A DNA stretch of 36,580 bases from Methanobacteriota archaeon (GCA_043821745.1 JBDRCL010000061.1:1-36580), one strand, 5' to 3'. Positions 1,536-36,580 are shown, counted from the first letter of the stretch. The notes: a model not told the origin generated them from the sequence alone. Made by a program: numbers and translations.

Positions 1536-2524
1536 GCCTTCGTGACCAGTTTTTGCTGCAGTATTTTGAAAATTTGTTTCTTGACGTCCTCGAAGCTCCC
1601 CTTGCCGCTTGCGCTTGCGGCTCCGGCATGTCCTCCGCCGGTACCGTTGTACTGCTTGCCGAGGCCTTCCATAATCTCGCCCAAGTGGAGCCACGTCTCC
1701 TTGACGATGTTCTGCCTAGCGCGACCGCTGACCCTGAACTCCCCCTTCTCATCCGAACCGACGAAAGCGACGTCCGCCCCTATTCTGACCAACAAGCTTG
1801 CGGCATCGCCTTCAAACGAACCCAACTCCGAAAACGACACCAAGCGCCCGTTAATCCTCTGCAGCTCCGAGCGTCCTGCGGCCTTCAGCATCGCCACTCT
1901 CCGCGAGATGTCCTCAGGTGGCTTTAGGACCTCAAGCACTCGATTGTAATCCGCGCCTGCTTTCAAAAGGGCATCCACGACCTCGAATGTCTCCTGTTTC
2001 GCCAGCCTGAAGTGACCGGTGTCGCTCACGATTCCGGTGAGCAACAGCGAGGCCTGCTCGGGCTTCAGCCCCACCTCGAGTCGCTCGATGATTCTATAGA
2101 TGAGCTCGGACTCGGAGGCCATGTCCTCGCGAACGTAATAGAAGCTGGCCATCTGCTTGGTCTCCTCGACTGGCTTGTGGTGGTCGATGACCGCGACCTT
2201 GACGGTGGTGTCCCTGAGCTTCTCACCGTACTTGCCCATGTGCCCCAGACTGGAGGTGTCGACAAGGATGGCAAGTTCAAAGTCCAGCTTGGGGTCGACC
2301 TCGATCTCCCGGCCAAAGCTCTTGAGGAGCGCCTCGGAGACCGCCGCAACGTCCATGGCTGCCCCCGCCCTGGCCTGTGCCCCCAGCTCGGTCATAACTT
2401 CTGCCAAAACGACGGAGCTGGCGACAGCGTCCGGGTCGGCGTTTCGATGGCAGAGAACTACGATTCTCTGACCGCCTCTGGCAGCTTGAGACAAAAAGTC
2501 TGCCGCCTCTTTCATGGGGTCCAA
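1532..2524 (-). CDS. DHH/DHHA1-family phosphoesterase (NrnA-like)
   Basis: Motifs HRNADPDAVAS, LVDTSS, VIDHH and C-terminal GGGHAGAASA. The TTG at 2524 or the ATG at 2515 (MKEAADF) could be the start. Confidence 0.8.
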   Translation of the reverse strand: MDPMKEAADFLSQAARGGQRIVVLCHRNADPDAVASSVVLAEVMTELGAQARAGAAMDVAAVSEALLKSFGREIEVDPKLDFELAILVDTSSLGHMGKYGEKLRDTTVKVAVIDHHKPVEETKQMASFYYVREDMASESELIYRIIERLEVGLKPEQASLLLTGIVSDTGHFRLAKQETFEVVDALLKAGADYNRVLEVLKPPEDISRRVAMLKAAGRSELQRINGRLVSFSELGSFEGDAASLLVRIGADVAFVGSDEKGEFRVSGRARQNIVKETWLHLGEIMEGLGKQYNGTGGGHAGAASASGKGSFEDVKKQIFKILQQKLVTKA

Positions 2525-2891: not shown

Positions 2892-3159
2892 TATTTTTCC
2901 TCCTTGGCTCCAACATGTCACGCGCGACAATCGCCCACCTTATGAACGAATTGAGCGCTGCACGCAGGGCCGCTGTGTCCTCTGCATCTACCTGTAAAAA
3001 TAAAGCGTTTTCCCTCCTCCTCACGCTGGCTTTGCTACGCGTCGAAGCCGGAAGAACTTCCTCCGGCGCAAGGGCCTGCCTCACGGCTTCGGCCTCGCGC
3101 GCGCTTCGAAACTCCAGCCTTATTGTCGCGCTGGCCTTTTCAGCTTTAACCATGTTCAT
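2884..3159 (-). CDS. pcc1: KEOPS subunit Pcc1
   Basis: 91 aa, ATIRLEFRSAREAEAVRQALAPE...LFLQVDAEDTAALRAALNSFIRWAIVARDML. This is the typical Pcc1 pattern, and the gene sits in the conserved position between Brix and prefoldin beta. Confidence 0.75.
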   Translation of the reverse strand: MNMVKAEKASATIRLEFRSAREAEAVRQALAPEEVLPASTRSKASVRRRENALFLQVDAEDTAALRAALNSFIRWAIVARDMLEPRRKNNG

Positions 3160-3697
3160 CTGCCTCCATTTTGCCTACACCGCCTTTGAACAAGCTTCCG
3201 AATGCCGTCACTTGAAGCACCGGCCCGATCGCCTTCGAGCTCGGCATGGCTCTGAACTGAACCTTGAGGCCATTGTCCGTCGTTATCAGGGCGACACCGC
3301 CCGACTCTGGTAACTTGTCCGAAAGACTGATGCCCAAAAGTTTCCCGACGAATTCCGCAAACTCCTGCGCCCTGGGGCCGTCGGCATGTATCCTCAGGTC
3401 CTCAAGTTTACTGCTCCGACTAGCTTCCCGTTGAATTTTTACCTCCCCTAGCTCGACCATGGCGTCCACCCATCGCCAATCCCGGCCGACCTCGATAAAT
3501 CTAATTTCCTTGGGCTTTCCCGAGACGCTGTTTACGAAAATGACTCGATCGTGCCCGAGTTCTCGGGAAACTGAACCCACTTTTCCGACTGTCTTTGTCC
3601 CACGCGGAACGTACCGCGATCCTGGGATGACCCGGACAAGCCCCCTGCAGAGAATCCTCGCGAGTTGGCCCGGCCGCCTTGACGTCGTTATCAACAT
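3146..3697 (-). CDS. Brix-domain (Imp4-like) ribosome biogenesis protein
   Basis: N-terminus MLITTSRRPGQLARILCRGL...YVPRGTKTV is characteristic of archaeal Brix proteins. Superoperon context. Confidence 0.75.
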   Translation of the reverse strand: MLITTSRRPGQLARILCRGLVRVIPGSRYVPRGTKTVGKVGSVSRELGHDRVIFVNSVSGKPKEIRFIEVGRDWRWVDAMVELGEVKIQREASRSSKLEDLRIHADGPRAQEFAEFVGKLLGISLSDKLPESGGVALITTDNGLKVQFRAMPSSKAIGPVLQVTAFGSLFKGGVGKMEADEHG

Positions 3698-3739
3698 GGC
3701 CTTCCCCGTTTTACAGGCCGGAGCCGAAATAGCGGTGCC

Positions 3740-3871
3740 TCATCTCGCTTTTATCTTGCGGACCGTCTCTTGGCGTGGTTTGTACAGTATGCGCGAGCCG
3801 CAGTGGGGGCAACGCGCGCGATTTTCTGGAAGCTTTTCGATCGTTCCCCCGCACTCACTACACTTGAACAT
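3740..3871 (-). CDS. rpoP: DNA-directed RNA polymerase subunit P (Rpo12)
   Basis: 43-aa zinc ribbon MFKCSECGGTIEKLPENRARCPHCGSRILYKPR inside ORF 3740..4021. ATG 3871 overlaps the L37Ae stop (TAATG). Confidence 0.85.
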   Translation of the reverse strand: MFKCSECGGTIEKLPENRARCPHCGSRILYKPRQETVRKIKAR

Positions 3872-4131
3872 TACGCTCCCTCCTTGGCTGGTGTCTTTTC
3901 CACGGTGGCTATGAGAGCAGACGGAGTATAAGCCGCGCCGGCGAACTTGGCACCACAACGCCTGCATTCCCATATTGAAGCGCCCGTTCTTTTCACCTTG
4001 GGCGCCCCACATCTCGGGCACTTGTGGTCCTGCCTGAGCTTCCGTTCAACCTCAACCACGAGCTTCCGTATCTTTGTCCCGTAGCGCGGACCGAGCCTGC
4101 CTGCAGAACCTATCTTTTTTTTACGCGGCAC
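3871..4131 (-). CDS. rpl37ae: 50S ribosomal protein L37Ae (eL43)
   Basis: MPRKKKIGSAGRLGPRYGTKIRK...CPRCGAPKVKRTGASIWECRRCGAKFAGAAYTP (C4 zinc ribbon). Confidence 0.95.
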   Translation of the reverse strand: MPRKKKIGSAGRLGPRYGTKIRKLVVEVERKLRQDHKCPRCGAPKVKRTGASIWECRRCGAKFAGAAYTPSALIATVEKTPAKEGA

Positions 4132-4135
4132 GACC

Positions 4136-4900
4136 TCACCCCAGTTTGGCCCTCAGCTCGACGGCTTTTGCGCTGGCCAAATCATACACCTGTTCCAGTT
4201 CCTCGCGCGTGAAATAGCCGACGCCGCCCTTTTGCATGGCGCAGATGCTGCCATCGTCCACGGTCGTTATCGTCAGCCTGGCGTCCATCATCCGTTCCTC
4301 GTCCAGGCACGGGTCGACAACCAGCTTATCGTCTATCTTGGCAACCGTCACCGCCACCGGGCGCTTGCTGAGCGGGAACGCTGGAAGTTTCCAATCCTCA
4401 TCCTCCGGCGGCTTCACGTTGATAAGCGCGGCAATCGCGGCGAGCGCCGAAGCGTTTATCAGGCCTCCGTCGTGGTCCAAAACATCTATGTCTATGAAAA
4501 CTGCCCAGACGTCCTCTCCCGACTTTATGTTCAGCTTATCCAGGTCTATCGCCTCCGACTCCCTGACGCCTCGGTCAACTACGCGCGCGACCTCGATGGC
4601 CTCCACGCGCGGCGGCCCGGGCTCGAACGTAGGCGACGCCATAGGCAGGAGCTCCGCATTCACGATGAGAACGCCGCTGTTAGGCTTGTCGGGGAAAGGC
4701 TGGGCATGCATCAGCTTGACTCCCGCCAGCACCTGGGTCTTCCCGAACATCACCTTGGCCGAGCCGTTCGCCGTCTTGATTATGCCCGTCTCGATGGTAA
4801 CGTCCCTCAACTGGTCGATCGCGCGACCGTCGACGCGCTTTCCCTGCCGAACAAGGTCAATTATATAGTCCCGTTTGACGCTTGAAATTATCTCGTACAT
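4136..4900 (-). CDS. rrp42: exosome complex protein Rrp42 (RNase PH-like, inactive subunit)
   Basis: RVDGRAIDQLRDVTIETGIIKTANGSAKVMFGKTQVLAGVK. Lies immediately downstream of rrp41. Confidence 0.9.
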   Translation of the reverse strand: MYEIISSVKRDYIIDLVRQGKRVDGRAIDQLRDVTIETGIIKTANGSAKVMFGKTQVLAGVKLMHAQPFPDKPNSGVLIVNAELLPMASPTFEPGPPRVEAIEVARVVDRGVRESEAIDLDKLNIKSGEDVWAVFIDIDVLDHDGGLINASALAAIAALINVKPPEDEDWKLPAFPLSKRPVAVTVAKIDDKLVVDPCLDEERMMDARLTITTVDDGSICAMQKGGVGYFTREELEQVYDLASAKAVELRAKLG

Positions 4901-5623
4901 TTACTCTCCCTCCTTAATGGCATACTTCTCCTTTAGTGCCTGCCGCTGCACCTCGTAAATCTTCTCGCAGCCCTGGAAGGCCAAGTCCACAGCTTGTTTG
5001 AACTCCTCCTTGGTGAAGTGGCCGTCCATCTGCAGCAGTGTTATCACTTTCCTGCGCGGCACTATCGCTATCGGCATGTCGGTTTGCCCAAACTGGTCCT
5101 CTTCCTTCATCAGGTCGAGGATTATTGTGTCGTCCACCTTGCCAGCCGCTACAGAGGTAACCAAGTCCCTCATCGGCACCCCGGCGTCCGCCAGAGCTAC
5201 CGCCGCGGCGTTTATTCCCGCGGTGCGCGTCCCGGCATCTGCCTGCAGAACTTCGATGAAGACGTCGATCACGGACCTCGGGTAAAGCTCGAGGAAAAGC
5301 ACAGGCTCAAGTGCCTCCTTCGTGACCTTCGATATCTCCATCGAGCGCCTGTCCGGTCCTGGTCGCTTGCGATCGTCAACCGAGAACGGGGCCATGCCGT
5401 ATCTGCAACGCAGCACTGCCGAGTCAGGTTGTTGATTGTGCCTGGGGTGCATCTCCCTCGGACCATAAACAGCCGCGAACACTTTGTTGTTTCCGAGCTC
5501 CACGTAAGCGGAACCATCCGCTCGCTCGAGAACTCCGGCTTTTATCTTCAGCGGCCTGAGCTCGTCTGGAGCCCGACCGTCGAGCCTCTTTCCATCTACT
5601 ATCAATTTCTCAGGTTTATCCAT
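4901..5623 (-). CDS. rrp41: exosome complex exonuclease Rrp41 (RNase PH-like)
   Basis: [43 protein letters not shown]...[20 protein letters not shown]. Confidence 0.92.
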
Positions 5624-6319
5624 TCAAATTCCTCCCGATTTTTCCTTTTCAAGCATGAGGGCCACCCGGTCTGTCAACCCGGAAGTATGCGCCTCGCGCT
5701 CGATCATGAGTACGGCCTCAACGGCCAAGTTAACCATCTTGGGGTCATCACCCCATATTATTATCCTTCCGTTCTGTCCCACCGCAAGCGTGCAGCCCGT
5801 GTTCTTCTCTATGACCTTGAGCATCGACCCCTTGCGCCCCAAGACCCGCGGCACTTTGGCCGGCGAGATCTCCACCATCTTCCCCCCTCTGATCTGGCCC
5901 ATGCCCCGTTCCATCGTCTCGAGCAGCACCCGCATGTACTCGTCAACGTCCTTGATTGAGGCAAGCACGACGTCGCCCATGCCGAGGTACTGACTTATGT
6001 CCTCTTGGTCCAAGTCTACCTTTCGATGGACCAGTTCGGAGACAAAGAGGTTCCCGTTATACGGCGAGTTCAGGTCCAGTATCCAACCGGACTTGTGAGC
6101 GTCGATGACAACCCCGACGACCAAGTCGCCGACATGCGGTATGTAACGACCCTGCAGGGGAATCACCCTAATCTGCTCCCCCTTGACATCAGCAAGGCCC
6201 ACCACCGCGGAGTATATCTTGTCGCCCTCACGGAACGAGCCCTCCATGTACTTGTAATCGCCCTCCGCAATCAACTGCCCCGGGATTACTATCTCCCTGT
6301 TTTGAACGTGTATCATCAT
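5624..6319 (-). CDS. rrp4: exosome RNA-binding subunit Rrp4 (S1 + KH)
   Basis: S1 region VGDLVVGVVIDAHKSGWILDL and KH region VPRVLGRKGSMLKVIEKNTGCTLAVGQNGRIIIWG. Confidence 0.9.
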   Translation of the reverse strand: MMIHVQNREIVIPGQLIAEGDYKYMEGSFREGDKIYSAVVGLADVKGEQIRVIPLQGRYIPHVGDLVVGVVIDAHKSGWILDLNSPYNGNLFVSELVHRKVDLDQEDISQYLGMGDVVLASIKDVDEYMRVLLETMERGMGQIRGGKMVEISPAKVPRVLGRKGSMLKVIEKNTGCTLAVGQNGRIIIWGDDPKMVNLAVEAVLMIEREAHTSGLTDRVALMLEKEKSGGI

Positions 6320-13184: not shown

Positions 13185-13508
13185 TTGAAGCTGGTCCACT
13201 ATCAGACCCTCGAGGCCGTCGAGCCCGAGGAGCTGCGGCAACTGGTCAGGATCAAGGCTAGGTTCAACGGGGAGCGCGGTTTCTGGGAGCGCATCAAGCT
13301 TTGGCGCAAGTCCGACATTCTGGAGAAGCTGGAGCCGAGCGGCGCCAGGTGGGGTTTCACCCGGACGCGGGACGACGAGGACAGACTGCGGCTGGTGCTG
13401 ACCCTAAGGGAGATGTCGCAGGCCACGCCGAGGCTGACCTGGGTCCTCTGCGACGAGTGCAACGGGGGCAAGGAGGTCGTGCTGAAGGGCGGCACGGCTG
13501 TGACATAA
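13185..13508 (+). CDS. hypothetical protein (C-terminal CxxC)
   Basis: 107-aa ORF with host-like GC-rich codon usage and a TTG start. No recognisable family. Confidence 0.45.
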   Translation: MKLVHYQTLEAVEPEELRQLVRIKARFNGERGFWERIKLWRKSDILEKLEPSGARWGFTRTRDDEDRLRLVLTLREMSQATPRLTWVLCDECNGGKEVVLKGGTAVT

Positions 13509-13550
13509 CAACCCGAATACAATAGGGCCGTGTCGTTATGCCTCAATTGT

Positions 13551-13786
13551 TCAATTTGCACGCCTTTTTTCTATCATTCTACCTATGACGGCTGAGGCCA
13601 TTATAAGCCCAATCCAGAAAATCAAGACAAGTTGAAGCCCTACTATATCCACTTCCCAAGGTTTGGCTGGGGTCCAGTTATTGTGTTCAGGGTATGCGTT
13701 CCCCATTTTAGAGGAAAGCCGTACTCCACATGCACAAAATCGGGCCAATCGTATCTGAACCCATAAGTCAGACCGATAAATGCCAT
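13551..13786 (-). pseudogene. possible frameshifted small membrane-protein gene
   Basis: Two overlapping minus-strand frames. 13786..13643 reads MAFIGLTYGFRYDWPDFVHVEYGFPLKWGTHTLNTITGPQPNLGKWI*. 13748..13551 ends in a clear TM helix, WEVDIVGLQLVLIFWIGLIMASAVIGRMIEKRRAN*. A 1-nt shift near 13650-13665 would fuse them. Confidence 0.25.
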
Positions 13787-13905
13787 GACGAGAAAAGCAT
13801 TATAACGCCTGATTTCACTAAAAGGAGCTTCATGCTTGCGTATCGATGTTTCGAAGTGGAGGAAACATCAAAAAATTAAAATTTATATTTTTTTCTGGCT
13901 AAAGA

Positions 13906-13914
13906 TTATAAATA
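13906..13914 (+). promoter_or_regulatory. TATA-like box (TTATAAATA) for the rubrerythrin-like gene
   Basis: About 40 nt upstream of the GTG at 13953. AGGAGGG lies at 13941-13947, 5 nt before the start. Confidence 0.4.
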
Positions 13915-13952
13915 TGTAGAAAATGCAATAATCACTGAAAAGGAGGGATAAT

Positions 13953-14471
13953 GTGGCGAAATTGTGGAGATGCGAAATCTGTGGAGATCCTTATATCGGA
14001 GAAAACCCGCCAGATAACTGCCCCTTTTGCGGAGCGCATAGAAATTACATAAAAGGGGCAAAAGAAGCCCAAGTTAATTTTAATGTTGAACTAAATGAAA
14101 AGGATAAAGCGAATGCCGAGCGCGCTCTACAGGTAGAAGTAAGTAACGCCGTATTTTACTTCTGCGCCGCCGAAAAAACAGACGACGATGAAGGAAAATT
14201 ATTGTTTAAGGCTTTGGGAAAAGTGGAAGCAGAACATGCCAGTGTTTGGAAGAAAATATTAAAGCTTGAAAAGGTGCCTAAAGGGGAAGCGTCATGTCAC
14301 CTAGGCAATAAAAAAAATTTAGAAGAATCTCATGCAAGAGAGACAAGAGCCATTGAATTTTATAAAAAGGCAGGCGCAGAATCCGGAAATGGGCGAGTAA
14401 AACAGATATTTGAAGCGTTCGTCGAAGTAGAAATGGATCATTTAGAACTTTCGCGAAAGAGATTAAAATAA
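13953..14471 (+). CDS. rubrerythrin-family protein with N-terminal rubredoxin-like Zn/Fe ribbon ('reverse' domain order)
   Basis: N-terminus WRCEICGDPY...CPFCGA. The ferritin-like four-helix part has E...EAEH...E...EVEMDH di-iron ligand spacing. GTG start with a strong SD. Markedly AT-rich codon usage. Confidence 0.75.
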   Translation: MAKLWRCEICGDPYIGENPPDNCPFCGAHRNYIKGAKEAQVNFNVELNEKDKANAERALQVEVSNAVFYFCAAEKTDDDEGKLLFKALGKVEAEHASVWKKILKLEKVPKGEASCHLGNKKNLEESHARETRAIEFYKKAGAESGNGRVKQIFEAFVEVEMDHLELSRKRLK

Positions 14472-14720
14472 CGCAAATGTATGAAATCTAAAAATGCTAA
14501 ATTTGTGGAAAATTAAATATCACTTCCACCCACCCTTTCCACCCTCTTAGGAAAAGAAGCATTTTAATGGCGTTTACCGTTGTTCGCCGTTAAAGTCGTG
14601 CTCTGATTGGCTGGAAGGGATGCTCAACGTGCCCAGATGGCATTTGACCAAGGTGAAAATTAGGAACACATTAAAAAAGTTAAAATTTAACCCAAGTTTC
14701 ACCAATAGTATCCGGTAAAG

Positions 14721-20749: not shown

Positions 20750-22147
20750 TTAGAGGAAATCCTTGAGGAAGAACTTGCCCTCGCCCATCGGCACGGCCCT
20801 CTCGAACATATCTCTCTGTTCCTTCCGTAGCGTCGACGGCTTGGTCGCGTCAATGCCAATCCTGTTGCCGACCCGATAATGGGCACCGGCCGGCGCCTCG
20901 GCAAGGACCGGCTGCTCGATGTCCAAGTTCTCGGAGACGCCCGCCCCAGGAATCACGATGACATCCTTCGCCGGGTCCACCCTCGTCCCTATCGACCAGA
21001 TGACATCCCTGGCATCGTAGATGTTGACGTCCTCGTCCACCACAATTATCACCTTGGGGTAGTGGTAGGAGGTCGACAGGGCGCCCAGTATGACGCTCCT
21101 CGCCTCGGTGTCGAAACGGGGGACCATTTGGATTATAGTCACGTAAAGGCCCCCCCAGGGTGGCACGTAGATGTCCCTTATGTCCGCAAAGCCACCGATG
21201 CTTTTCGTGCGGGTGTACATGTGCGCCTCCAGCGGCAGGGCGCAAAGGGCCTGGTGGTCGGTGAACCTGATGGTCTGAATGTGGCGGTAGATGGCGTCCT
21301 TCCTCATTGTAATCGCCTTGACCTTGAACATCGGCAGCATGTTCTTGCCCAGCACCTCCCTCGAATAACCCGTGTACTCGGCGAATGGACCCTCTTCCAC
21401 CCTCACCTTCGGCGGTATCTCCCCTTCGAGCACTATCTCGGCGGAGGCTGGCACCTCCATGTCGATGGTCTCGCACTTCACCAGCTCCACGGGCTCACCG
21501 GTGATCGGCTCAACGAAACCCAATTCATCGCAGGGATACTCGGTGCTGTAGCTGGTCACAACCTCGTAGGCCGGGTGCATCCCGATCGCCACTGCCATGG
21601 GCATGGGTTTATCTTCCTTCTCATATTTTTGATAATTCATCAACGAGTGCATCGGCGACATTTGGCATCCGGTATGATTTTTGCTCAGGACCTGCATGCG
21701 GAGACAGGCGAGGTTCCTGATCCCGGTGTCGGGGTCTTTTGTGATGCAAGTGCCGGCGCCTATGTAGGGGCCGCCGCACGTCGTGGAGTGGGTGATGACC
21801 GGGAGCTTGGTCAAGTCGACTTCGTCCCCGACCACTATCTTATCCTTCACCGGACCGCTGGACACCATCTTGCATTCCTTTGGACCCTCCGCGAAGCGCT
21901 TTGCAAGCTCCGGGACGACCTTGTCCTTTGGCGTTCCCAATAGTAAGGCGTGTTGTTCGCGGGACTGGATGATGTCGGCGCAGACCTTCCAGCCCGGGTA
22001 ACCCTTCACGTTTTCAAAAAGCAATGCTTTCTCGGACTCTGAACACAGGGTCCCCATCTGGGTCTTGGGATCGGCCTCTTTCTTAATTTTATATATCAAA
22101 TTATTTTCTTCAAGCTGTTTGAGCCAACTTCTCAAGTCCTTAGGCAT
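20750..22147 (-). CDS. UbiD-family (prenyl-FMN-dependent) decarboxylase
   Basis: MPKDLRSWLKQLEENNLIYKIKKEADPKTQMG...FENVKGYPGW... About 465 aa, typical UbiD length and N-terminus. No ubiX in the window. Confidence 0.8.
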   Translation of the reverse strand: MPKDLRSWLKQLEENNLIYKIKKEADPKTQMGTLCSESEKALLFENVKGYPGWKVCADIIQSREQHALLLGTPKDKVVPELAKRFAEGPKECKMVSSGPVKDKIVVGDEVDLTKLPVITHSTTCGGPYIGAGTCITKDPDTGIRNLACLRMQVLSKNHTGCQMSPMHSLMNYQKYEKEDKPMPMAVAIGMHPAYEVVTSYSTEYPCDELGFVEPITGEPVELVKCETIDMEVPASAEIVLEGEIPPKVRVEEGPFAEYTGYSREVLGKNMLPMFKVKAITMRKDAIYRHIQTIRFTDHQALCALPLEAHMYTRTKSIGGFADIRDIYVPPWGGLYVTIIQMVPRFDTEARSVILGALSTSYHYPKVIIVVDEDVNIYDARDVIWSIGTRVDPAKDVIVIPGAGVSENLDIEQPVLAEAPAGAHYRVGNRIGIDATKPSTLRKEQRDMFERAVPMGEGKFFLKDFL

Positions 22148-22226
22148 GGTTCTTCCTTTTCCCACAGCAATAAATGTTTTTGGGTGTGATTTTTATAGAC
22201 GCACCATATTATCAATCCCTGTAGCT

Positions 22227-22466
22227 TCAGAGCAAAGTCTCGGCGGTCAAGGTGCACGCTAGCAGGTCGTCCAGCGTGGCTAGAATGGTCTCCATCCTTC
22301 CGTCCAGCTCAACTGTGCTGGCTACCCTCTTGCCCTTAGCCCTCGTGGACACGACCAAGCCCTCTGGAAGCTTCAGATTGTCCGGCTCAAGAGCTTTGGC
22401 CACTGTTTTTGACACTCGCAAACTTTCGTAACGACACACAACTTCTGCTTTCATTTTCATACGCAT
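22227..22466 (-). CDS. Pcc1-like small protein (second KEOPS Pcc1 paralogue, 'Pcc2'-like)
   Basis: 79 aa, KAEVVCRYESLRVSKTVAKALEPDN...VASTVELDGRMETILATLDDLLACTLTAE follows the Pcc1 beta-alpha-beta-beta-alpha pattern. Its ATG overlaps the TGA of the upstream RecJ-like gene. Confidence 0.5.
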   Translation of the reverse strand: MRMKMKAEVVCRYESLRVSKTVAKALEPDNLKLPEGLVVSTRAKGKRVASTVELDGRMETILATLDDLLACTLTAETLL

Positions 22467-23848
22467 CAATTCCCAGATTTAGAATTTCCTATATAAAAAT
22501 TAAGCTTTTCAAGGTCGTCCTTTCCAAGTTCGGTAAGCTCCTTGATCATCGAAATGAGCTCCTGCATGACTGAGTACATGGGCACCGGCTTGTCTGCAAA
22601 GCACTCGGCAGCTGAAGCGTGGCCTCCACCCTCTATCCCGTCGTGGCCCGGATAAAGACGCCTTAAGCGCTCGGCCAGCTGGAAACATATTGCGCCGCAG
22701 TCTATATATTCGCCTCCTCCGCGCATCGAGATCTGGATGCCTCTCTCCTTCGGGCAGAACAAGACAATCATCGTTTCTTTGTGACCGAAAGCCCTCTTCA
22801 GCGGCTCAAGCTGCGTAGACGCGACAAACGGCAATATCGCTGAGAAGGGCGCGACCTGCATGGGCAAAACCTCCCTTGCGAAAAACAAGTAAACTCCAAC
22901 GCCTTGGAGCTCGCCCAGAAAGGTGGTGCTTTGCACCCTCCCGTTCAGCACATCCCAATCAGATCGGTAACGCTTCAAAACGGATGCTAGGATATTCCCT
23001 TTTGGCACGTTGCCCAACAAATCATCAATGTTTCTAAAATCCGCCGGCCGCACATCCCTCTCTGCAAGATGCATGAGGTAATTATATACTAATTCTGGTC
23101 CGCTGGAGACCCTTATGTCCAGGTCCTTTTCGTAAAAGTGGGCCAGAGAACCTGCGTGCACCACCTCCACAATTTGATTGACTAACGCCGTTCGCCTCCT
23201 GTCCACAGTGTCATACATCGTCGGGCGACCGAGCCTCACCTTAAAAAAGTGTGGAAACTTTTTCATCGAACGCTCGATGAACGGGCGGGCAAACTCGGCG
23301 CAGGTTTTCTCGACTGGGTCGAGGGCAAAATCCCCTCGGCAACCCATTAGCGCGACGAAATCGTCATGATCGCTCGTCGAACCAAATTTGGTGGCAATCA
23401 TGTGACACAGCAGGGAAGCGGCAGTTGGAACTGAACGCTCCGACGAGGGGTTGAACACCGTGCACTTCTGAGGTCGGCCGTCCAGCATGTGGTGATCTAT
23501 TATCAGAACGTTTCCGACTTTACCGAAAAAATCGTCGTAGTAAGAAAATGTCCCCTTGTCCGTGAGCAAAAGCAGGTCAAAATCGACCTTGCCCTTCAAA
23601 GCTTCAACCAGGTCCCCTTCAGATAGCCTGAATTGTATGGGCATTTTCACGACGACCTCAGCTCCAAAACGATGCCTGAGCAGCCGTTGCATTATGAAGG
23701 CGCTGGCGATGCCGTCGGTGTCGTGGTGCGAGAAGTGCAAAATTCTCAGTCGCTTACGCTGGCCCAGCTTTTCCAAAAGTTTGACGGCACTCGCGAACCC
23801 TGAATCGGCCTCAAAAAGAAATCGAACCTGTTCATCGTAATACATCAC
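22466..23848 (-). CDS. RecJ/GAN-like DHH-family nuclease, paralogue B
   Basis: FSHHDTDGIASA, LLLTDKG, LIIDHH, GCRGD, GGGHASAAEC (DHHA1). 460 aa. Confidence 0.75.
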   Translation of the reverse strand: MMYYDEQVRFLFEADSGFASAVKLLEKLGQRKRLRILHFSHHDTDGIASAFIMQRLLRHRFGAEVVVKMPIQFRLSEGDLVEALKGKVDFDLLLLTDKGTFSYYDDFFGKVGNVLIIDHHMLDGRPQKCTVFNPSSERSVPTAASLLCHMIATKFGSTSDHDDFVALMGCRGDFALDPVEKTCAEFARPFIERSMKKFPHFFKVRLGRPTMYDTVDRRRTALVNQIVEVVHAGSLAHFYEKDLDIRVSSGPELVYNYLMHLAERDVRPADFRNIDDLLGNVPKGNILASVLKRYRSDWDVLNGRVQSTTFLGELQGVGVYLFFAREVLPMQVAPFSAILPFVASTQLEPLKRAFGHKETMIVLFCPKERGIQISMRGGGEYIDCGAICFQLAERLRRLYPGHDGIEGGGHASAAECFADKPVPMYSVMQELISMIKELTELGKDDLEKLNFYIGNSKSGN

Positions 23849-27480: not shown

Positions 27481-28569
<1,089 letters not shown>

Positions 28570-28641
28570 TTAGTTAAACTATAGTGATTAACAAGGTAAT
28601 ACTTATTAATCTATTTTGCTTAATATTGCTGAGGATTTCCA

Positions 28642-29589
28642 ATGAACAATAAAATAAAAATAGCTATCATCATGGCAATTGCGGCAATGACCATTTCCTT
28701 TGCCTACCTCGGCGTTCAGAGGGGGCAAAACATGTTGACCATATCCACGACGACAAGCCTTTATGACACCGGACTTTTGGACGCCGTGGCCGAACGCTAT
28801 CTTGAGCTTTACAACACTAGGCTGGATTTCATAGCAGCCGGCACTGGTCAAGCTCTGGAGCACGCTAGAAATGGCGACGCCGACGTGGTGCTCGTACACT
28901 CCCCATCAACTGAAAACCAATTTCTGACGGAGGGCGTGGTTGGTACAAGGAGGATAATCGCCTACAACTTTTTCATAATCATCGGGCCCCCGGACGACCC
29001 GGCCGGAATCAAGGGGCTAACTCCTATCGATGCGCTCAAGAAAATAGCCTCGACCGAATCTACCTGGGTTTCCCGGGGCGATAACTCTGGAACCCACACT
29101 AAGGAGAAATCACTCTGGAAAAAGGCCGATATAGAACCGTACAACAACGCATGGTATATGGAGTCAGGCGCCGATATGGGGCTGACACTTACTATCGCCA
29201 GCGAGAAAGCGGCCTACACTTTAGCAGACACCGGCACATATCTGAAGTACAAGAGCGACGAGCTGACCGATTCAGAAATCATCGTCGATATCGGGAAAGA
29301 CCTCCTGAACGTCTACAGCGTGATGGCCGTTAACCCTGAAAAGAACCCGAACGTTAAATTCAGCGCTGCGATCAAATTCATAGAATACTTGACATCGGAC
29401 AGCGGTCAAACAATGCTGGGTGAATTTGGCATGAAAGAATACGGCGTTCCTCTTTTCAACCCTGCGGTGCAGCTTCTCGAGACAGGCGAAAACCCAGAAC
29501 TGTCGGGCTGGATACGTAGCTACGCATTCCTGGAGAACAGCGAGTGCCCATCTAGATACAGGCTCGGCCAGGAGCAACTTTACAAATGA
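28642..29589 (+). CDS. tupA: tungstate ABC transporter substrate-binding protein TupA
   Basis: Signal/TM N-terminus, then ISTTTSLYDTGLLD (TupA TTTS anion-binding motif), GTGQALEHARNGDADVVLVH and SRGDNSGTH. Confidence 0.8.
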   Translation: MNNKIKIAIIMAIAAMTISFAYLGVQRGQNMLTISTTTSLYDTGLLDAVAERYLELYNTRLDFIAAGTGQALEHARNGDADVVLVHSPSTENQFLTEGVVGTRRIIAYNFFIIIGPPDDPAGIKGLTPIDALKKIASTESTWVSRGDNSGTHTKEKSLWKKADIEPYNNAWYMESGADMGLTLTIASEKAAYTLADTGTYLKYKSDELTDSEIIVDIGKDLLNVYSVMAVNPEKNPNVKFSAAIKFIEYLTSDSGQTMLGEFGMKEYGVPLFNPAVQLLETGENPELSGWIRSYAFLENSECPSRYRLGQEQLYK

Positions 29590-31356: not shown

Positions 31357-32235
31357 ATGGTCGAGCTAGTGTTCCTTGGATCGGGAGGCGGAAGATTCCA
31401 GACGATCAACCAGTACTTCAAAACGGGCGGGTTCAGGATTCATGCGGGAGTCAATGTGCACGTTGACCCGGGACCGGGCGCGCTATTGCTTACGCACAAA
31501 TATGGGTTGGACCCTTCGGATTTGGATGGCATCGTCGTCACGCACTGCCACCCTGACCACTACACGGACGCAGAAGTTTTGATTGAAGCAATAGCACAGC
31601 ACATGGCAGCTGAAGACATAGGGAGATCCTTTGGCAAAAAAAGAGGCACATTTATCGGCAGCAAGAGCGTCATCGAGGGGGTCGGGAATTACGGTCCGGC
31701 AGTCTCCCGATACCACCAAACCAAACTCGAGAAACTAGCAGTCCTTGAGCCCGGGGAGAAATTTCAGCTCGGCAATATTGAAATCGAATCGATGCCGACG
31801 AAACACAGCGATCCAACTTCAATCGGCATAATATTCCGCACTGAAAAAGGAGAGATAGGTTACACCAGCGACACCCAGTATTTTGAGGATATCGAAAAGT
31901 ACTTCAGGGGAGTGCGGGTTCTTATAGCAAACGTCACGCGTCCGCTGTCGATGCGGATACCGTGGCATCTTTGCTCGGATGATTTTATTAAAATTTTGAA
32001 TAAGGTCAAGCCAGAGCTGGCCGTGATGATACACATGGGCATGTTGTTCCTCAAGCATTCGCCTTCGAAGGAGGCTTCCAGAATAAAATCGGAGACGGGC
32101 GTGGAGACCATCCCGGGGCAAGCCGGATTGAGGATTAATCTCGATGGGGAGATCAAAATAGTGCGTCCGCCAAACCAACCCACTCTGGAAGAGTTCGCCA
32201 AATTAAAAACGGAAAAATTCTCTAACGCACAGTAG
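31357..32235 (+). CDS. MBL-fold metallo-hydrolase
   Basis: VVTHCHPDHY (HxHxDH) and a GSGGG N-terminus. 292 aa. Confidence 0.75.
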   Translation: MVELVFLGSGGGRFQTINQYFKTGGFRIHAGVNVHVDPGPGALLLTHKYGLDPSDLDGIVVTHCHPDHYTDAEVLIEAIAQHMAAEDIGRSFGKKRGTFIGSKSVIEGVGNYGPAVSRYHQTKLEKLAVLEPGEKFQLGNIEIESMPTKHSDPTSIGIIFRTEKGEIGYTSDTQYFEDIEKYFRGVRVLIANVTRPLSMRIPWHLCSDDFIKILNKVKPELAVMIHMGMLFLKHSPSKEASRIKSETGVETIPGQAGLRINLDGEIKIVRPPNQPTLEEFAKLKTEKFSNAQ

Positions 32236-32240
32236 CCCTA

Positions 32241-32250
32241 ATTACTTATA
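32241..32250 (+). promoter_or_regulatory. TATA-like box (ATTACTTATA) positioned for a leaderless transcript starting near ATG 32272
   Basis: The box centre is about 26 nt upstream of ATG 32272, in the spacer after the MBL gene. Confidence 0.3.
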
Positions 32251-32271
32251 CCAATCGCCACAATTCTTGAG

Positions 32272-32328
32272 ATGGTCAACATGGCGGCTTCGAATGATTA
32301 TAACCCGCACGAAATCGAGCTGAAGTAA
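32272..32328 (+). other. 18-codon ORF encoding a ValRS-type N-terminus (MVNMAASNDYNPHEIELK*): orphan valS 5' exon or remnant
   Basis: Own translation. YNPHEIELK matches the Y-[DN]-P-x-E-x-E-x-K(W) start of archaeal ValRS. It uses host-like GC3-rich codons and stops (TAA 32326-28) exactly where the conserved Trp should follow. Confidence 0.55.
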
Positions 32329-32483
32329 AATTTTAGGTTTTCCCAAAATCCACTAAAATCTCAAACATCGAAAATGCGCTAACTTTCAAGGGCAAGTTAT
32401 TGAGAATTTACCAAAACTAATACTTTCGCGGCCCCTCCTCCGAAGTTGGTTAAATGTAAATCAAAATAATAACTGAGGCGAAG

Positions 32484-34094
32484 TTGTTGCTCTCCGTAAA
32501 TTTTTGGGATCTGCCACATCGGCGTACCTCCATTATCTTCTCTGAGGATTTTTCGCAGGTTATTCATAATACAGTGGCGAATTTGTTCGACAAAAATCTC
32601 ACCAAAGCGTCAAAAACAATTGGTATACCAAAAAGTCTTTTCTACCGCCTTGAGCAAAAAAGGCGCATTAGAATCGACAATCTTTTCAAGCTGCTAAATT
32701 TTTTAGGTGCTCGCGATTCAACATTTTCTACAAAGGCTGCCCAGAGACACTTAATTTGGATAGGACCAGCACATGGAAGAGGAATATCCAACCCTTGCTT
32801 TCCAATCGAGCTTCAGAACAATGCATTGGTGCGAACAGCCGCCAGAGCTTGTGGAGATGGGATTCTAACTAGAACTTATGGACTTCGCCATGGTTATGGA
32901 ACTATAATCTACTACGCAAAGGAGGATCCAGAACAGCTGCAAAACGCGATTGATGACGCCATCATTGCCTTTGGAGGAAATGTCCAAACATACAGGATTA
33001 ATTTCGGCAAGGACATCTACTTAGTTTACCCCACTGTCGTGCGTGATGTCTTGTTATTCGCAGGAGTGATGACAAGTCCAAAAGCAGAAAGCGAACGCGG
33101 CGTCCCGGAGTTTGTGATGAAAAGCGAAAAAGCGACTACTTGGGTTGCTTGGCTTCAACAAACGGGGGACGATGAAGGGCATGTTGTTTATCACCCGCAA
33201 CATAACCTATATGGCATCTACTGGCGTCGATCCACCGACATTACTGGACTCCTGCCTGGCATTGAGCTTAGGGCCGGGGAGCGGATTTCCATTCATATAT
33301 CATCAGACGACGTTCGGGAACACGTGGTAGGGCGATCACCGAAATTGATAGCCGATGAGCAGGGGCTTCTCAGTAGGCTCCGCATTACCTCCACAGTCAC
33401 TCCTTTGGAGATTTACCGAACTCTTAATGGAAAACTTCGGGTCAAGTGGCAACTCCGCATTAGCGGTCCTGATAACTTGATTCGATATGGTAGAAAAGTA
33501 GGGTTTCGGATTACGAGGAAATCAACCGCGCTAGCTAAAGCAATGGACCAATGCGTAAGTTACGAAAAAATTATCTTACCAATTCTTAACGACCTTCAAC
33601 AGAAACACGGCTACCTCGATGCAAGATCGGTATCAATGAGACTGGGCGGTTGCCTAGTTCCCCATTCAAACAAAACAACCATTTCCGGGTTGGTCGCTTT
33701 ACGAGAAATGTCCAAACGAGGCTATGTCCATAAAATAAGCGAGGGACGGTACATCAAAAAATTGAAGAAGTACATTCCATCAAGATACGTTATAACTAGC
33801 AAGGGAACAAGAAGGCTTAAAGAGATTTGCGACCAATTCCATTATCTGGATGAAAAGGTGGGAGGTGGTTCAGCGAATAAAGTGACAGCAGAAGTTCCGG
33901 CAGCTTACGATCCACTTGAGGCAGAACCAAAATGGCGGAAGAAGTGGAAAGAATTGGGTATTCACAGCTTCCGACGCGACGATTACGAAACGCCGACCTA
34001 TATTATCGATACCCCGCCGCCATATTCCTCGCAAGAGGGTGGAGCCGAGCGGGGAGTTCCACATGGGCACGGCGCTGAATTGGACGTACTTTGA
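32484..34094 (+). CDS. LAGLIDADG-like (double-motif) homing-endonuclease-type protein with N-terminal HTH and C-terminal winged helix; the ORF reads through into valS exon 1
   Basis: TTG 32484 has GAGG 5 nt upstream. HTH is [27 protein letters not shown]-like motifs are [14 protein letters not shown] (about 32830-32867) and [15 protein letters not shown] (about 33141-33185). Between and after them come the expected beta-strand/helix segments (...[18 protein letters not shown]). The wHTH is [18 protein letters not shown]...ITSKGTRRL. The last ~70 residues are the ValRS N-terminus plus out-of-frame read into intron 1 and exon 2. Low GC relative to its neighbours. Confidence 0.6.
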
Positions 34095-36580
34095 TATCGT
34101 CGCTCGCTATAAGCGGATGCGCGGCTTCAACGTGATGTTTCCCCAGGGATCCCCGTGAAGTGCTGTAACGGCATATTCATGGGCCTGAATGGGACTGTCA
34201 CGGGCTGCCCACCGAGGTCCAAGTGGAGAAACGCTACGGGATAAGAAAGGGCGACCTGCCGGCGGAGAAGTTCCGAGAGCTCTGCGTCAAGCTGACCAGC
34301 GAAAACATATCTCACATGCGAGAAGAGATGAACTCCTTCGGGTTTTCAATAGACTGGTCCACTGAGTACCGGACGATGGATCCGAGCTATTACGGCAAGA
34401 CCCAGCTTTCGTTCGTGCAGCTTTACAAGAAAGGGCTCATCTACAGGGGCGAGCACCCGGTCAACTGGTGCCCCCGCTGTGAGACCGCAATCGCGGACGC
34501 CGAGGTGGAGTACGGGGAGAGGAGCACCAAGCTGAACTACGTAAAGTTCAAGCTCGCCGGGGATGACGGGGCGTTGACCATTGCCACCACGCGTCCCGAG
34601 TACCTGCCGGCGTGCGTTGTGGTGGCGGTCCATCCGAACGACGAGAGGTACCGGAGATACGTCGGGGGAAAGCTCGAGGTCCCGCCATTCGGTCACGTCG
34701 TAGAGATTATAAAGGACACGGAGGTCGACCCTGGGTTCGGCACGGGAGTCGTGATGGTGTGCACATTCGGGGACAAGACCGACGTGCGCTGGGTGAAGCG
34801 CTACAAGCTGCCGGTCATCAAGCTGATCGATGAGAAGGGCGCGATGACGGAAGCCGCTGGAAAATATTCAAAGATGACGATGGAGGAGGCGCGACGCGCG
34901 ATAATCGAGGACCTGCGCGCGGCTGGATCGCTCGAAAAGCAGGAAGAGCTGCCGCAGAGCGTCGGTGTCTGCTGGCGCTGCAAGACTGTCGTCGAGATCT
35001 TGACGAAACCGCAGTGGTTCATGCGCGTGCTCGACCTAAACAAAAAAGTGGTCGAGGAGGCCAAACGCGTGAGGTGGGTACCGGACTACATGCGCACCAG
35101 ATTCGTCGACTGGACGAACTCGATGGACTGGGACTGGGTGATCTCGCGGCAGAGGATCTTTGCCACGCCGATCCCGGCCTGGTACTGCTCCAAATGCAGG
35201 GAACCGATAGTGGCTGAAGAGAAGCAGCTGCCGGTCAACCCTGCGAGGGACAAGCCGCCGGTCGAGAAATGCCAGAGCTGTGGCAACCAGAACTTCGATC
35301 CGGAACCGGACGTACTCGACACCTGGATGGACAGCTCGATAACTATCGCAGCTCATGCGGGATGGCCCGACATCGACCAACGTCTCTTCCCAGCCGACCT
35401 TCAGCCGAACGGGACGGACATCATCAGAACCTGGGACTATTACCTGATGGTCCGTCACCTCGCGCTACTGGGCAAGGCACCATACAAGACCGTGTTGGTC
35501 AACGGCATGGTGCTCGGAACCGACGGCAGGGCGATGCACAAATCGCTCGGGAATTACGTTGACAGCACAAAGGCCCGAGAGAAATACGGCGCCGATGCGC
35601 TCCGCCAGTGGGCGGCGATAGGGGCGTCGACCGGCTCGGACATACCGTTCACCTGGAAGGACGTGGAGTTCGGATACCGGTTCATGCGAAAGTTATGGAA
35701 CGCTGCCCGATTCGCCGGCCCGCATCTGAACTCAAAAGTTGCAAAGCTCGAGGTCAAAAAAATAAAGCTGACGCCCGTGGACCGCTGGCTCCTGAGCAGG
35801 CTCAACAGGCTGGTGAAGAACGTCACGGGATGGCTCGAGGACTTCCAGTTCAACCGTGCTCTCGGCGATATTCAAAACTTCGTATGGCACGAGCTCTGCG
35901 ACATGTACATCGAGGAAGTGAAGCACCGGCTTTACGCCGGCGACCGGACCACCGAAGCGGCCGCCTTCACCCTTTACCAGGCCATGCTGACTTCAGTCAA
36001 GCTCCTCGCCCCGTTCATACCTCACTTCGCCGAAGAAGTCTATCAGACGTACTTCGCCGGAGACCAGCAACTGCCGAGCGTTCACAGCTTCGGCTGGCCG
36101 GACGCCGACGAGAGCCTGATAGATGAATCCGCGGAGAAGCTCGGTGAAATTGCCAACCTTGCGATAAGCACTCTGCGGCAGTTCAAGTCCACGAGGAAGA
36201 TGGCCCTCAGCGCCGAGATACCAAAACTTGAGATCTACACGGCGAACAATGACGTCGCCAAACAGCTGAAGGAAATAAAAAATGATATCGCCGGCACCAT
36301 GCGGGTTAAAGAAGTTAAGATAATAACCAACAAGCCGGAGCTGAAAGAGCGCGTGCTCTCGGTGGAACCGAACCTGGCGAGGCTGGGTTCAAGATTGCGC
36401 GGCGACGTAAAGATCGTCACTGAGGCCCTGCGAAACGCCAAGCCGGAAGAAATCTCGAAACTTATGGGCAAGGGCAAAATGACCATAAATGAAGCAGGGA
36501 AAACCATCGAACTTTCAATCGAGGATTTGAAAATAGTCAGTGAACTGGAAAGCGAGGGTCACAAGGTCGAAGTCATCGAT
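33882..36580 (+). CDS. valS: valyl-tRNA synthetase, split by two BHB mini-introns (exons 33882..34025, 34045..34149, 34190..>36580; 3' end beyond window)
   Basis: Own three-frame reading gives (V)[47 protein letters not shown] | [35 protein letters not shown] | [18 protein letters not shown]...[21 protein letters not shown]...[16 protein letters not shown]...[12 protein letters not shown]...WFMRV...[17 protein letters not shown]...[10 protein letters not shown]...[11 protein letters not shown]...[11 protein letters not shown]... Exon 3 is an uninterrupted 797-codon frame to the window end; it is absent from the ORF track because it is edge-truncated. The start codon is uncertain (GTG 33882, or fusion to the upstream ORF). 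Confidence 0.88.
34026..34044 (+). other. 19-nt bulge-helix-bulge (BHB) intron 1 in valS
   Basis: Canonical hBHBh' geometry (see finding). Removal joins CCA UAU|CCG AGC, giving PPPY|PSGEFHMG in frame. Confidence 0.8.
34150..34189 (+). other. 40-nt bulge-helix-bulge (BHB) intron 2 in valS
   Basis: Canonical hBHBh' geometry (see finding). Removal joins CAG GGA|UGG GAC, giving FPQG|WDCHG in frame. Confidence 0.8.

Follow-up and report, generated by a model that had tools for sequence, protein, structure and literature searches.

A candidate composite mobile insertion at the 5' end of a Hadarchaeota valS gene: a LAGLIDADG-type homing-endonuclease-like gene associated with two bulge-helix-bulge mini-introns

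The valS gene, which encodes valyl-tRNA synthetase (ValRS), occupies the downstream end of the window considered here (the whole 36,580-nt stretch of DNA that was analysed, from a Hadarchaeota archaeon), and its unusual 5' region is the subject of this report. All features described at this locus lie on the plus strand. Exon 1 of valS (33882-34025) has a GTG start, comprises 48 codons, ends in ..DTPPPY and aligns with the ValRS N-termini of relatives. Exon 2 (34045-34149), identified by tblastn, comprises 35 codons (PSGEFHMG...FPQG) in frame +1 relative to exon 1, and exon 3 (34190-36580; 797 codons, 63-79% identity to Hadarchaeota ValRS) continues past the window end. The exons are separated by an insert of 19 nt (34026-34044), situated just before the codons of the HIGH motif, and by another of 40 nt (34150-34189), which contains an in-frame TGA at 34156-34158. 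Upstream of valS is a LAGLIDADG-type homing-endonuclease-like gene (32484-33863; hereafter the open reading frame, ORF), the product of which combines a helix-turn-helix (HTH) domain, a double LAGLIDADG core and a winged helix. The ORF forms part of an insertion of ~1.6 kb (32329-33881), and upstream of that lies a stub of what appears to be the original valS 5' end (32281-32328).

From their sequence and predicted folds, both inserts are canonical bulge-helix-bulge (BHB) introns and are predicted to be spliced. In the minimum free energy structure given by RNAfold, intron 1 forms a canonical hBHBh' motif with 3-nt bulges AU|U and AG|C on either side of a 4-bp central helix (CCAU/GUGG), an inner stem of 4 bp that ends in a GCAA tetraloop, and an outer helix that pairs exon 1 with exon 2 (z -2.7). 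The corresponding structure of intron 2 has a central helix CAGG/CCUG, an outer helix UCCC/GGGA and a long inner stem (z -3.6); RNAfold draws it with a 4-nt 5' bulge, and the 3-nt version can also form. Cuts between bulge nucleotides 2 and 3 are predicted to yield the protein junctions PPPY|PSGEFHMG and FPQG|WDCHGLP, the same sequences that run without interruption through the ValRS of 10 ORF-less genomes. The predicted spliced valS junctions are CCGCCATAT|CCGAGCGG for intron 1 and CCCCAGGGA|TGGGACTG for intron 2, and CCGCCGCCATATCCGAGCGGGGAG and TTTCCCCAGGGATGGGACTGTCAC are the k-mers predicted for spliced valS RNA. A loose BHB pattern is no rarer on the plus strand of the window than in shuffled sequence (1,675 versus 1,668 occurrences), so the motif alone is no evidence; its coincidence with fixed junctions is, since with the junction fixed the odds of obtaining the eight required pairs are ~(6/16)^8 = 4e-4 per intron. 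For the same reason, a scan of the whole window for BHB motifs marking further split genes was uninformative. Group I and group II introns were considered and rejected, as no Rfam covariance model matched between 32000 and 34500 at E<=1. The window contains no tRNA genes, and no further copy of intron 1 was found in it at up to three mismatches, which indicates that intron 1 is not a dispersed repeat.

Comparison with related loci (L-numbers denote compared loci or contigs) places these inserts among elements that vary in length and presence at constant exon junctions. Intron 1 measures 0, 16 or 19 nt and intron 2 measures 0, 30, 37, 40 or 41 nt, depending on the lineage, and the exon junction is unchanged throughout. 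The 16-nt form of intron 1, in L036, retains the BHB. Intron 1 is missing from all ORF-less loci and from L001, which lacks exactly the 19 nt; intron 2 is missing from L020, L043 and all ORF-less loci. Consensus folds built from six lineages per intron keep the BHB, with one compensatory change (C-G to U-A) in the exon-exon outer helix of intron 1 and, in intron 2, several one-sided G-U changes and zero double changes, among sequences that are few and related. Synonymous third-codon sites that pair within the BHB are frozen solely in intron-bearing alleles (TTTCCCCAGGGA|TGGGA in 8/8) and vary in intron-less ones. Both introns interrupt the two most conserved coding motifs of valS. At L001:7495-7530, where intron 1 is absent, the CCA Pro codon and CCGAGCGG are nevertheless kept as in all intron-1 alleles, and both are missing from ORF-less alleles, a pattern that suggests precise loss of intron 1 from L001 as opposed to primary absence.

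The part of the ORF supported by homology ends near 33850, and the mechanical reading frame continues to 34094. LAGLIDADG motif 1 (32832-32861) covers residues 117-126 and ends in D125-G126; motif 2 (33147-33179) covers residues 222-232 and ends in E231-G232. Within the close family, ..ACGD125G and ..DDE231G are invariant, and both are conserved in the wider family; K200 is likewise conserved. A profile search of 1.84 billion representative sequences returned 211 relatives, and relatives from this search were aligned with the close homologues to give an 88-sequence family alignment, in which D125 and G126 are at least 90% conserved, as are D230 and G232 of motif 2 (family consensus FDDEG). By analogy, D125 and E231 may serve as the catalytic residues. 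PF14528 (LAGLIDADG_3) matches 47 of the 88 aligned members, and others match XRE-type HTH and winged-helix models. The window protein itself gives only weak matches in NCBIfam, to intein-bearing models (E ~1e-3), and a sequence profile search of the PDB returned only noise (E >= 0.2). An AlphaFold2 model built on the 88-sequence alignment has a predicted local distance difference test score (pLDDT) of 93 and a predicted TM-score of 0.90, with a double alpha-beta-beta-alpha-beta-beta-alpha core; it supersedes a poor model (pLDDT 55) based on 11 close homologues alone. Foldseek places PI-PfuI, PI-TkoII, WhiA, PI-SceI, E-DreI, I-DmoI, I-AniI and I-OnuI among the top matches, at probabilities of up to 1.0, and matches the C-terminus to winged helices of the PadR/MarR type. 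The 11 homologues are 63-72% identical to the window protein and 367-492 aa long, save one fragment of 280 aa; one derives from a metagenome-assembled genome (MAG) of Candidatus Hadarchaeaceae. In every homologue contig the ORF is directly upstream of valS on the same strand, within the gene order AsnC-like / hypothetical / metallo-beta-lactamase-fold / ORF / valS / DUF2116 / AA_kinase / eRF1. The ratio of nonsynonymous to synonymous substitution rates (dN/dS) is ~0.13 against five relatives, indicating purifying selection. The ORF product is plausibly a mobile-element protein and a putative nuclease. Two proposals of the initial annotation, which had been made from the sequence of the window alone, hold up here: the HTH-LAGLIDADG-winged-helix architecture is supported by the profile, AlphaFold2 and Foldseek evidence, and the two inserts do behave as mini-introns, given their BHB folds and their exact presence or absence in relatives. 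The possibility that the ORF is part of an intein was rejected, as stop codons occur in all frames between the stub and the ORF and neither a Hint match nor a Hint fold was found. L001 carries, in addition, a separate 257-aa PF14528 LAGLIDADG_3 protein (L001:227-1000, minus strand), ~5 kb upstream and adjoining the AsnC-like gene.

The manner in which the ORF came to lie upstream of valS is indicated by the stub and by the ORF-less loci. The stub consists of an ATG and 14 further codons (MAASNDYNPHEIELK), followed by TAA, and resembles a ValRS N-terminus (tblastn, E 3e-4). Together with the preceding segment (32170-32280) it aligns with L022, the closest ORF-less genome to the window, over a stretch that takes in the end of the lactamase-fold gene, then the TATA box, and codons 1-15 of valS. 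A TATA-like box, TTATA (32246-32250), ~33 nt 5' of the stub ATG, aligns with ACTTATATC upstream of valS in L022, and TTTATATC-type boxes occur upstream of valS in all ORF-less loci; this box probably belongs to the original valS promoter. Since the stub aligns with codons 1-15 of L022 valS, the ORF lies in a 1.6-kb insertion placed after codon 15. The insertion is missing from the 10 ORF-less Hadarchaeota loci with the valS 5' end on the contig, and has a GC content of 0.43-0.49, compared with 0.57-0.61 in the body of valS. It contains a ribosome-binding site for valS in addition to the LAGLIDADG-like gene, and appears to have supplied its own replacement valS start. Transcription from the stub promoter (from ~32246 on) would enter the ORF and then valS. 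Four other lineages have valS 5' stubs upstream of the ORF, at L001:5131-5232, L036:2774-2821, L039:1012-1104 and L040:776-868, with lengths of 34, 16 and 31 codons; none was seen in L005, L009 or L020. The stub and the ORF of L001 are separated by a Peptidase_M48 gene, which lies on the opposite strand. We also considered the 1.6-kb block as a single BHB intron joining the stub to valS and rejected this, having found 13 candidate structures, compared with 9.4 expected, none of them in frame.

The distribution of the ORF and the introns points to mobility. A scan of one genome per species gave 14 Hadarchaeota valS loci, 10 of which have a readable 5' end on the contig; L020 is the ORF-bearing locus among the 14, and with the metagenome loci and L043 included the ORF-bearing lineages number 10. 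At least one intron is present in 10/10 ORF-bearing lineages and any intron in 0/10 ORF-less loci with a readable 5' end, these and the following being raw lineage counts that ignore kinship and linkage. Intron 2 occurs in all eight lineages with a window-type ORF, and intron 1 only is found in both lineages with an L020-type ORF (L020, the ORF of which is 30% identical to that of the window, and L043). L043:1-320 has the same stub and left junction as the window at 32252-32500 (~85-90% nucleotide identity), combined with the other ORF sub-type (protein 31% identical to that of the window) and intron 1 only; here one endonuclease gene has apparently been exchanged for another on a shared background. 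In a neighbour-joining tree of the ValRS body, the window falls inside an otherwise ORF-less clade (96% and 88% bootstrap), and L020, which has the ORF, is sister to L019, which does not (98% bootstrap). The window groups with ORF-bearing lineages by 17:8 over the 5' ~300 nt of valS and with ORF-less ones by 105:55 over the body (Fisher p = 0.002). The patchy tree, the mosaic 5' end and the stubs together argue for horizontal mobility, and the unit that moved would comprise the endonuclease gene, the introns and flanking exon DNA.

The ORF as listed extends from a TTG start at 32484 to 34094 (536 aa). Three-frame translation shows that its frame is that of valS exon 1, with no stop codon in between. 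On unspliced RNA, ribosomes that start at 32484 would first meet a stop at codon 537 (TGA, 34092-34094), and the 536-aa product would include the 48 ValRS codons (33882-34025) followed by 22 residues out of frame. Were intron 1 alone removed, the stop would fall at codon 552 (..FPQGSP, then TGA 34156-34158 within intron 2); with both inserts out, 1,346 codons remain open to the window end. The initial annotation had reported the absence of a stop between the ORF and exon 1, a 536-aa product ending at 34092-34094 with about 48 ValRS residues, a frame of more than 1,340 codons once both introns are removed, and a stop that depends, from the start at 32484, on the splicing state, all of which the ORF list and translation confirm. 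It had gone on to propose that splicing partitions expression between the mobile-element protein and the synthetase, and this is not supported, the open junction being peculiar to the window and the Shine-Dalgarno sequence of valS being conserved. The ORF has its own stop ahead of valS in the L001, L009, L036, L039, L040 and L041 lineages, and in the L005 lineage it overlaps valS by 75 nt in a different frame, leaving the window as the only one of eight lineages compared with an open in-frame junction. Differences between the window and L005 include indels of 2 nt and 3 nt in the variable ORF tail. An in-frame arrangement has a chance of ~1/3, and a stop-free stretch over the ~17 codons from the usual family C-terminus to the valS start a chance of ~0.44; continuity would thus arise by chance in ~15% of cases and is unremarkable on its own. 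The open frame joining the ORF to valS looks like a local accident and not a control device, and the reading-frame point that had first drawn attention to the locus is of minor importance.

Translation of valS appears to have its own signals. A Shine-Dalgarno-like GGAGGTG (33861-33867), inside the upstream ORF, is conserved in relatives: GGAGGTG or GGGGGTG is kept in L001, L005, L007, L009 and L010, 9-17 nt 5' of the valS start, and in all lineages it is followed by an ATG or GTG from which a normal ValRS N-terminus can be read. The start and the Shine-Dalgarno sequence are conserved in all relatives and the position of the ORF stop is variable, which favours independent valS initiation. The GTG at 33882, earlier put forward as the best valS start, retains that status, as it aligns with the GTG start of L005 and L007 and follows the conserved Shine-Dalgarno sequence; the spacer between the two, given as 13 nt, is in fact 14 nt. 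ValRS is most likely made by independent initiation at this codon, and the most economical reading of the comparison is that read-through products are by-products in the window lineage. The sole TATA-like word between 33700 and 33880, TTATAA at 33790, is not conserved in relatives.

The nearest relatives of the ORF outside this group (P-numbers denote protein relatives) also sit at genes for class Ia aminoacyl-tRNA synthetases (aaRS). P0012 and P0016 each extend over the 3' end of a leuS-like gene, and in L031 a displaced C-terminal stub of leucyl-tRNA synthetase (LeuRS) lies on the far side of the P0016 ORF (E = 1e-6), the order being stub (1735-1833, minus strand), P0016 (1914-3140, plus strand) and intact leuS-like gene (3124-5766, minus strand). 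This layout resembles the gene-end replacement suggested for valS, but at the 3' end. A displaced leuS stub was sought in L027 and none was found. In P0084 (204 aa), 126 N-terminal residues of a family member are followed in frame by a LeuRS N-terminus, a second case of read-through into an aaRS. L030 has a class Ia aaRS gene just 3' of P0014, with a 24-nt in-frame, stop-containing insert at PPPYP|SG (L030:1860-1890). Removal of this insert gives PPPYPSGRPWHIG, and only a relaxed BHB that lacks the outer helix can be drawn; we treat it as a lead and not as a finding. One family member, P0026, has no aaRS neighbour.

We consider it likely that the 5' end of valS has here received a composite selfish insertion, one that spread by collaborative homing. 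Our working hypothesis is that a 1.6-kb block bearing a free-standing endonuclease-like gene entered valS after codon 15, stranded the native promoter and the first 15 codons as a stub, and carried in a new Shine-Dalgarno sequence, a GTG start and replacement 5' codons. The tRNA-splicing endonuclease and an RtcB-type ligase would remove the mini-introns and so restore the ValRS frame, and ValRS would be translated on its own from GTG 33882 on the spliced RNA. The enzyme would cut intron-less valS alleles at or near an intron site, the introns would render the carrier allele immune to it, and repair would copy the gene, the introns and flanking exon DNA together, as collaborative homing envisages; stubs would arise where the upstream end of the break was joined without homology. 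In the window lineage, small indels would have deleted the endonuclease gene's own stop, and through this loss ribosomes from TTG 32484 would read into valS, to end at 34094 on unspliced RNA, at 34158 if intron 1 is out, or in a fusion of >1,346 aa if both are out. A more specific extension, which we offer tentatively and with clearly less confidence, is that two endonuclease sub-types each recognize one valS motif (FPQG|WDCHG for the window type and PPPY|PSGEFH for the L020 type) and that the BHB introns are the immunity elements. The system may then be an archaeal form of collaborative homing with host-spliced mini-introns, an intermediate on the way to endonuclease-bearing introns, and a general route into class Ia aaRS genes (valS, leuS) by gene-end replacement.

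Several observations weigh against the composite insertion as we have described it. The co-occurrence of ORF and introns could be explained by linkage alone, as they lie within 300 nt of each other, the lineage counts are phylogenetically non-independent, and internal bootstrap support in the second ValRS clade is weak. The window protein has no Pfam match at E<=1, its LAGLIDADG homology being transitive and structural, and WhiA, a LAGLIDADG relative that is not a nuclease, is its third-best Foldseek match. Strong purifying selection is as compatible with domestication of the protein as with active selfish behaviour. The 14-nt spacer between the Shine-Dalgarno sequence and GTG 33882 is long, and an exact look-up of the 536-aa product found no second copy of the window junction, which is represented by one assembly only. 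In a rival explanation the ORF encodes an active homing endonuclease that has its target away from the introns, codons 15-34 being one candidate area, and the introns confer no immunity but are carried along as passengers. Such a target would sit well with the stubs, whose final codons are 15, 16, 31 and 34, all 5' of the two introns, and the introns, within 300 nt of the ORF, would fall inside a plausible co-conversion tract. The tracking of intron type by ORF type (8/8 and 2/2), which extends to the window and L043 on a single stub background, speaks against simple hitch-hiking, as does the location of the introns in the two most conserved coding motifs, typical homing sites, and we regard this explanation as unlikely, though with a share of the probability that is not negligible.

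Domestication of the ORF product, as a LAGLIDADG-derived DNA-binding protein with a WhiA-like regulatory or other host function to which the introns are unrelated passengers, would account for the WhiA match, the extra HTH and winged-helix domains, the low dN/dS and the stable synteny. We judge it improbable because the protein keeps the catalytic acidic residues of both motifs and the conserved Lys, is distributed patchily on the ValRS tree with a mosaic 5' end, and comes in two types that have been swapped on one background; in addition, the stubs show insertion into valS, and relatives are found at the termini of further class Ia aaRS genes, in one case together with a displaced stub of the gene end. 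An explanation that makes the in-frame junction itself functional, with the splicing state setting the ratio of the 536-aa protein to a giant endonuclease::ValRS fusion and so coupling the element to the synthetase, seems to us very unlikely. Its frame logic holds mechanically, the two genes are contiguous or overlapping in all lineages, which makes co-transcription likely, and P0084 provides a second family member in frame with an aaRS N-terminus; but the junction is open in one of eight lineages, the ORF tail varies in both length and frame, valS has a conserved Shine-Dalgarno sequence and start of its own, an open in-frame junction is expected by chance about as often as calculated above, and P0084 is a truncated remnant, not an intact protein. 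We also think it very unlikely that the stop is missing only through an indel error in sequencing or assembly, with the real ORF ending before valS or out of frame: the window lineage is indeed known from one assembly, and its difference from L005 does consist of small indels, yet these lie outside homopolymer runs, the remaining ORF and valS are intact, and the tail is naturally variable in related lineages.

Short BHB introns have been described in the pre-mRNA of cbf5 in Crenarchaeota (Watanabe et al., 2002; Yokobori et al., 2009, PMC2738675), and these cbf5 studies are still the only ones cited for introns in mRNA by a paper of 2025 on the splicing endonucleases of archaea (PMC12397907). 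The valS introns resemble those of cbf5 in that they are short BHB introns in a protein-coding gene, with expected removal by the tRNA-splicing endonuclease and with gain/loss polymorphism; they differ in residing in an essential aaRS gene of Hadarchaeota, where two introns interrupt catalytic-motif codons and are strictly linked to an endonuclease-like gene. Collaborative homing is known from phages, in which the free-standing F-CphI gene lies beside an ORF-less group I intron of psbA in cyanophage S-PM2 and T4 mobE is paired with the I-TevIII intron (PMC6083498; PMC2790892). In a similar manner, a free-standing endonuclease gene here adjoins a gene with ORF-less introns, and the intron is proposed to break up the target site and to spread jointly with the gene. 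Unlike the phage systems, the valS locus has BHB mini-introns of 16-41 nt that host enzymes are expected to splice, in place of a self-splicing group I ribozyme, along with a putative LAGLIDADG-type enzyme and a cellular archaeon as host. LAGLIDADG enzymes and BHB introns are also combined in archaeal rRNA introns that contain homing endonuclease genes, such as those of I-DmoI, I-PorI and the Thermoproteales 16S introns (PMC2602781; PMC4496867), and I-DmoI is among our structural matches. In the rRNA cases the endonuclease gene is inside the intron and the host gene encodes rRNA, whereas in valS it is outside, with ~170 nt separating its end from intron 1 and ~290 nt separating it from intron 2; the valS introns are far too small to hold an ORF. 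In fungal mitochondria, free-standing endonuclease genes insert into the end of a gene and bring a replacement end with them, as in Allomyces atp6, leaving a displaced stub, and the endonuclease ORF frequently shares the reading frame of the host gene. The present case differs from these in affecting the 5' end of an archaeal chromosomal gene (or the 3' end, of a leuS-like gene, in L031) and in its BHB introns. WhiA shares with the ORF product a LAGLIDADG core and an accessory DNA-binding domain. It is a LAGLIDADG-derived transcription factor with a C-terminal HTH that has lost the catalytic acidic residues and is inherited vertically in Gram-positive bacteria, whereas the ORF family retains D125 and E231 and is patchily distributed.

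To our knowledge, introns in archaeal protein-coding genes are known essentially from cbf5 in Crenarchaeota. The present locus adds an essential aaRS gene from another phylum, in which two BHB introns occupy catalytic-motif codons and appear and disappear together with the homing-endonuclease-like gene next door. Should this link be causal, it would offer a concrete and testable account of the spread of BHB introns into new sites and suggest how partnerships between endonuclease genes and introns begin; it would also show one way into an essential gene for a selfish gene that has neither intron nor intein of its own, namely by bringing a replacement gene end. A literature search on Hadarchaeota together with introns or homing endonucleases returned nothing relevant, with incomplete coverage, so that an earlier description is possible.

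Elsewhere in the window, GC content falls to 0.39-0.45, against ~0.57, in patches at 13500-14500, 22000-22500 and 28500-29000, the first of which contains a rubrerythrin-like ORF (13953-14471). In intron-bearing genomes valS itself is mis-called: no gene was called at L009:3550-6318, that of L001 was split in two, and gene callers dropped the N-terminal valS exons in L005 and L006 (L005:6634-6994). When valS is missed or split in this way, both the estimated completeness of Hadarchaeota MAGs and their aaRS inventories can be distorted.

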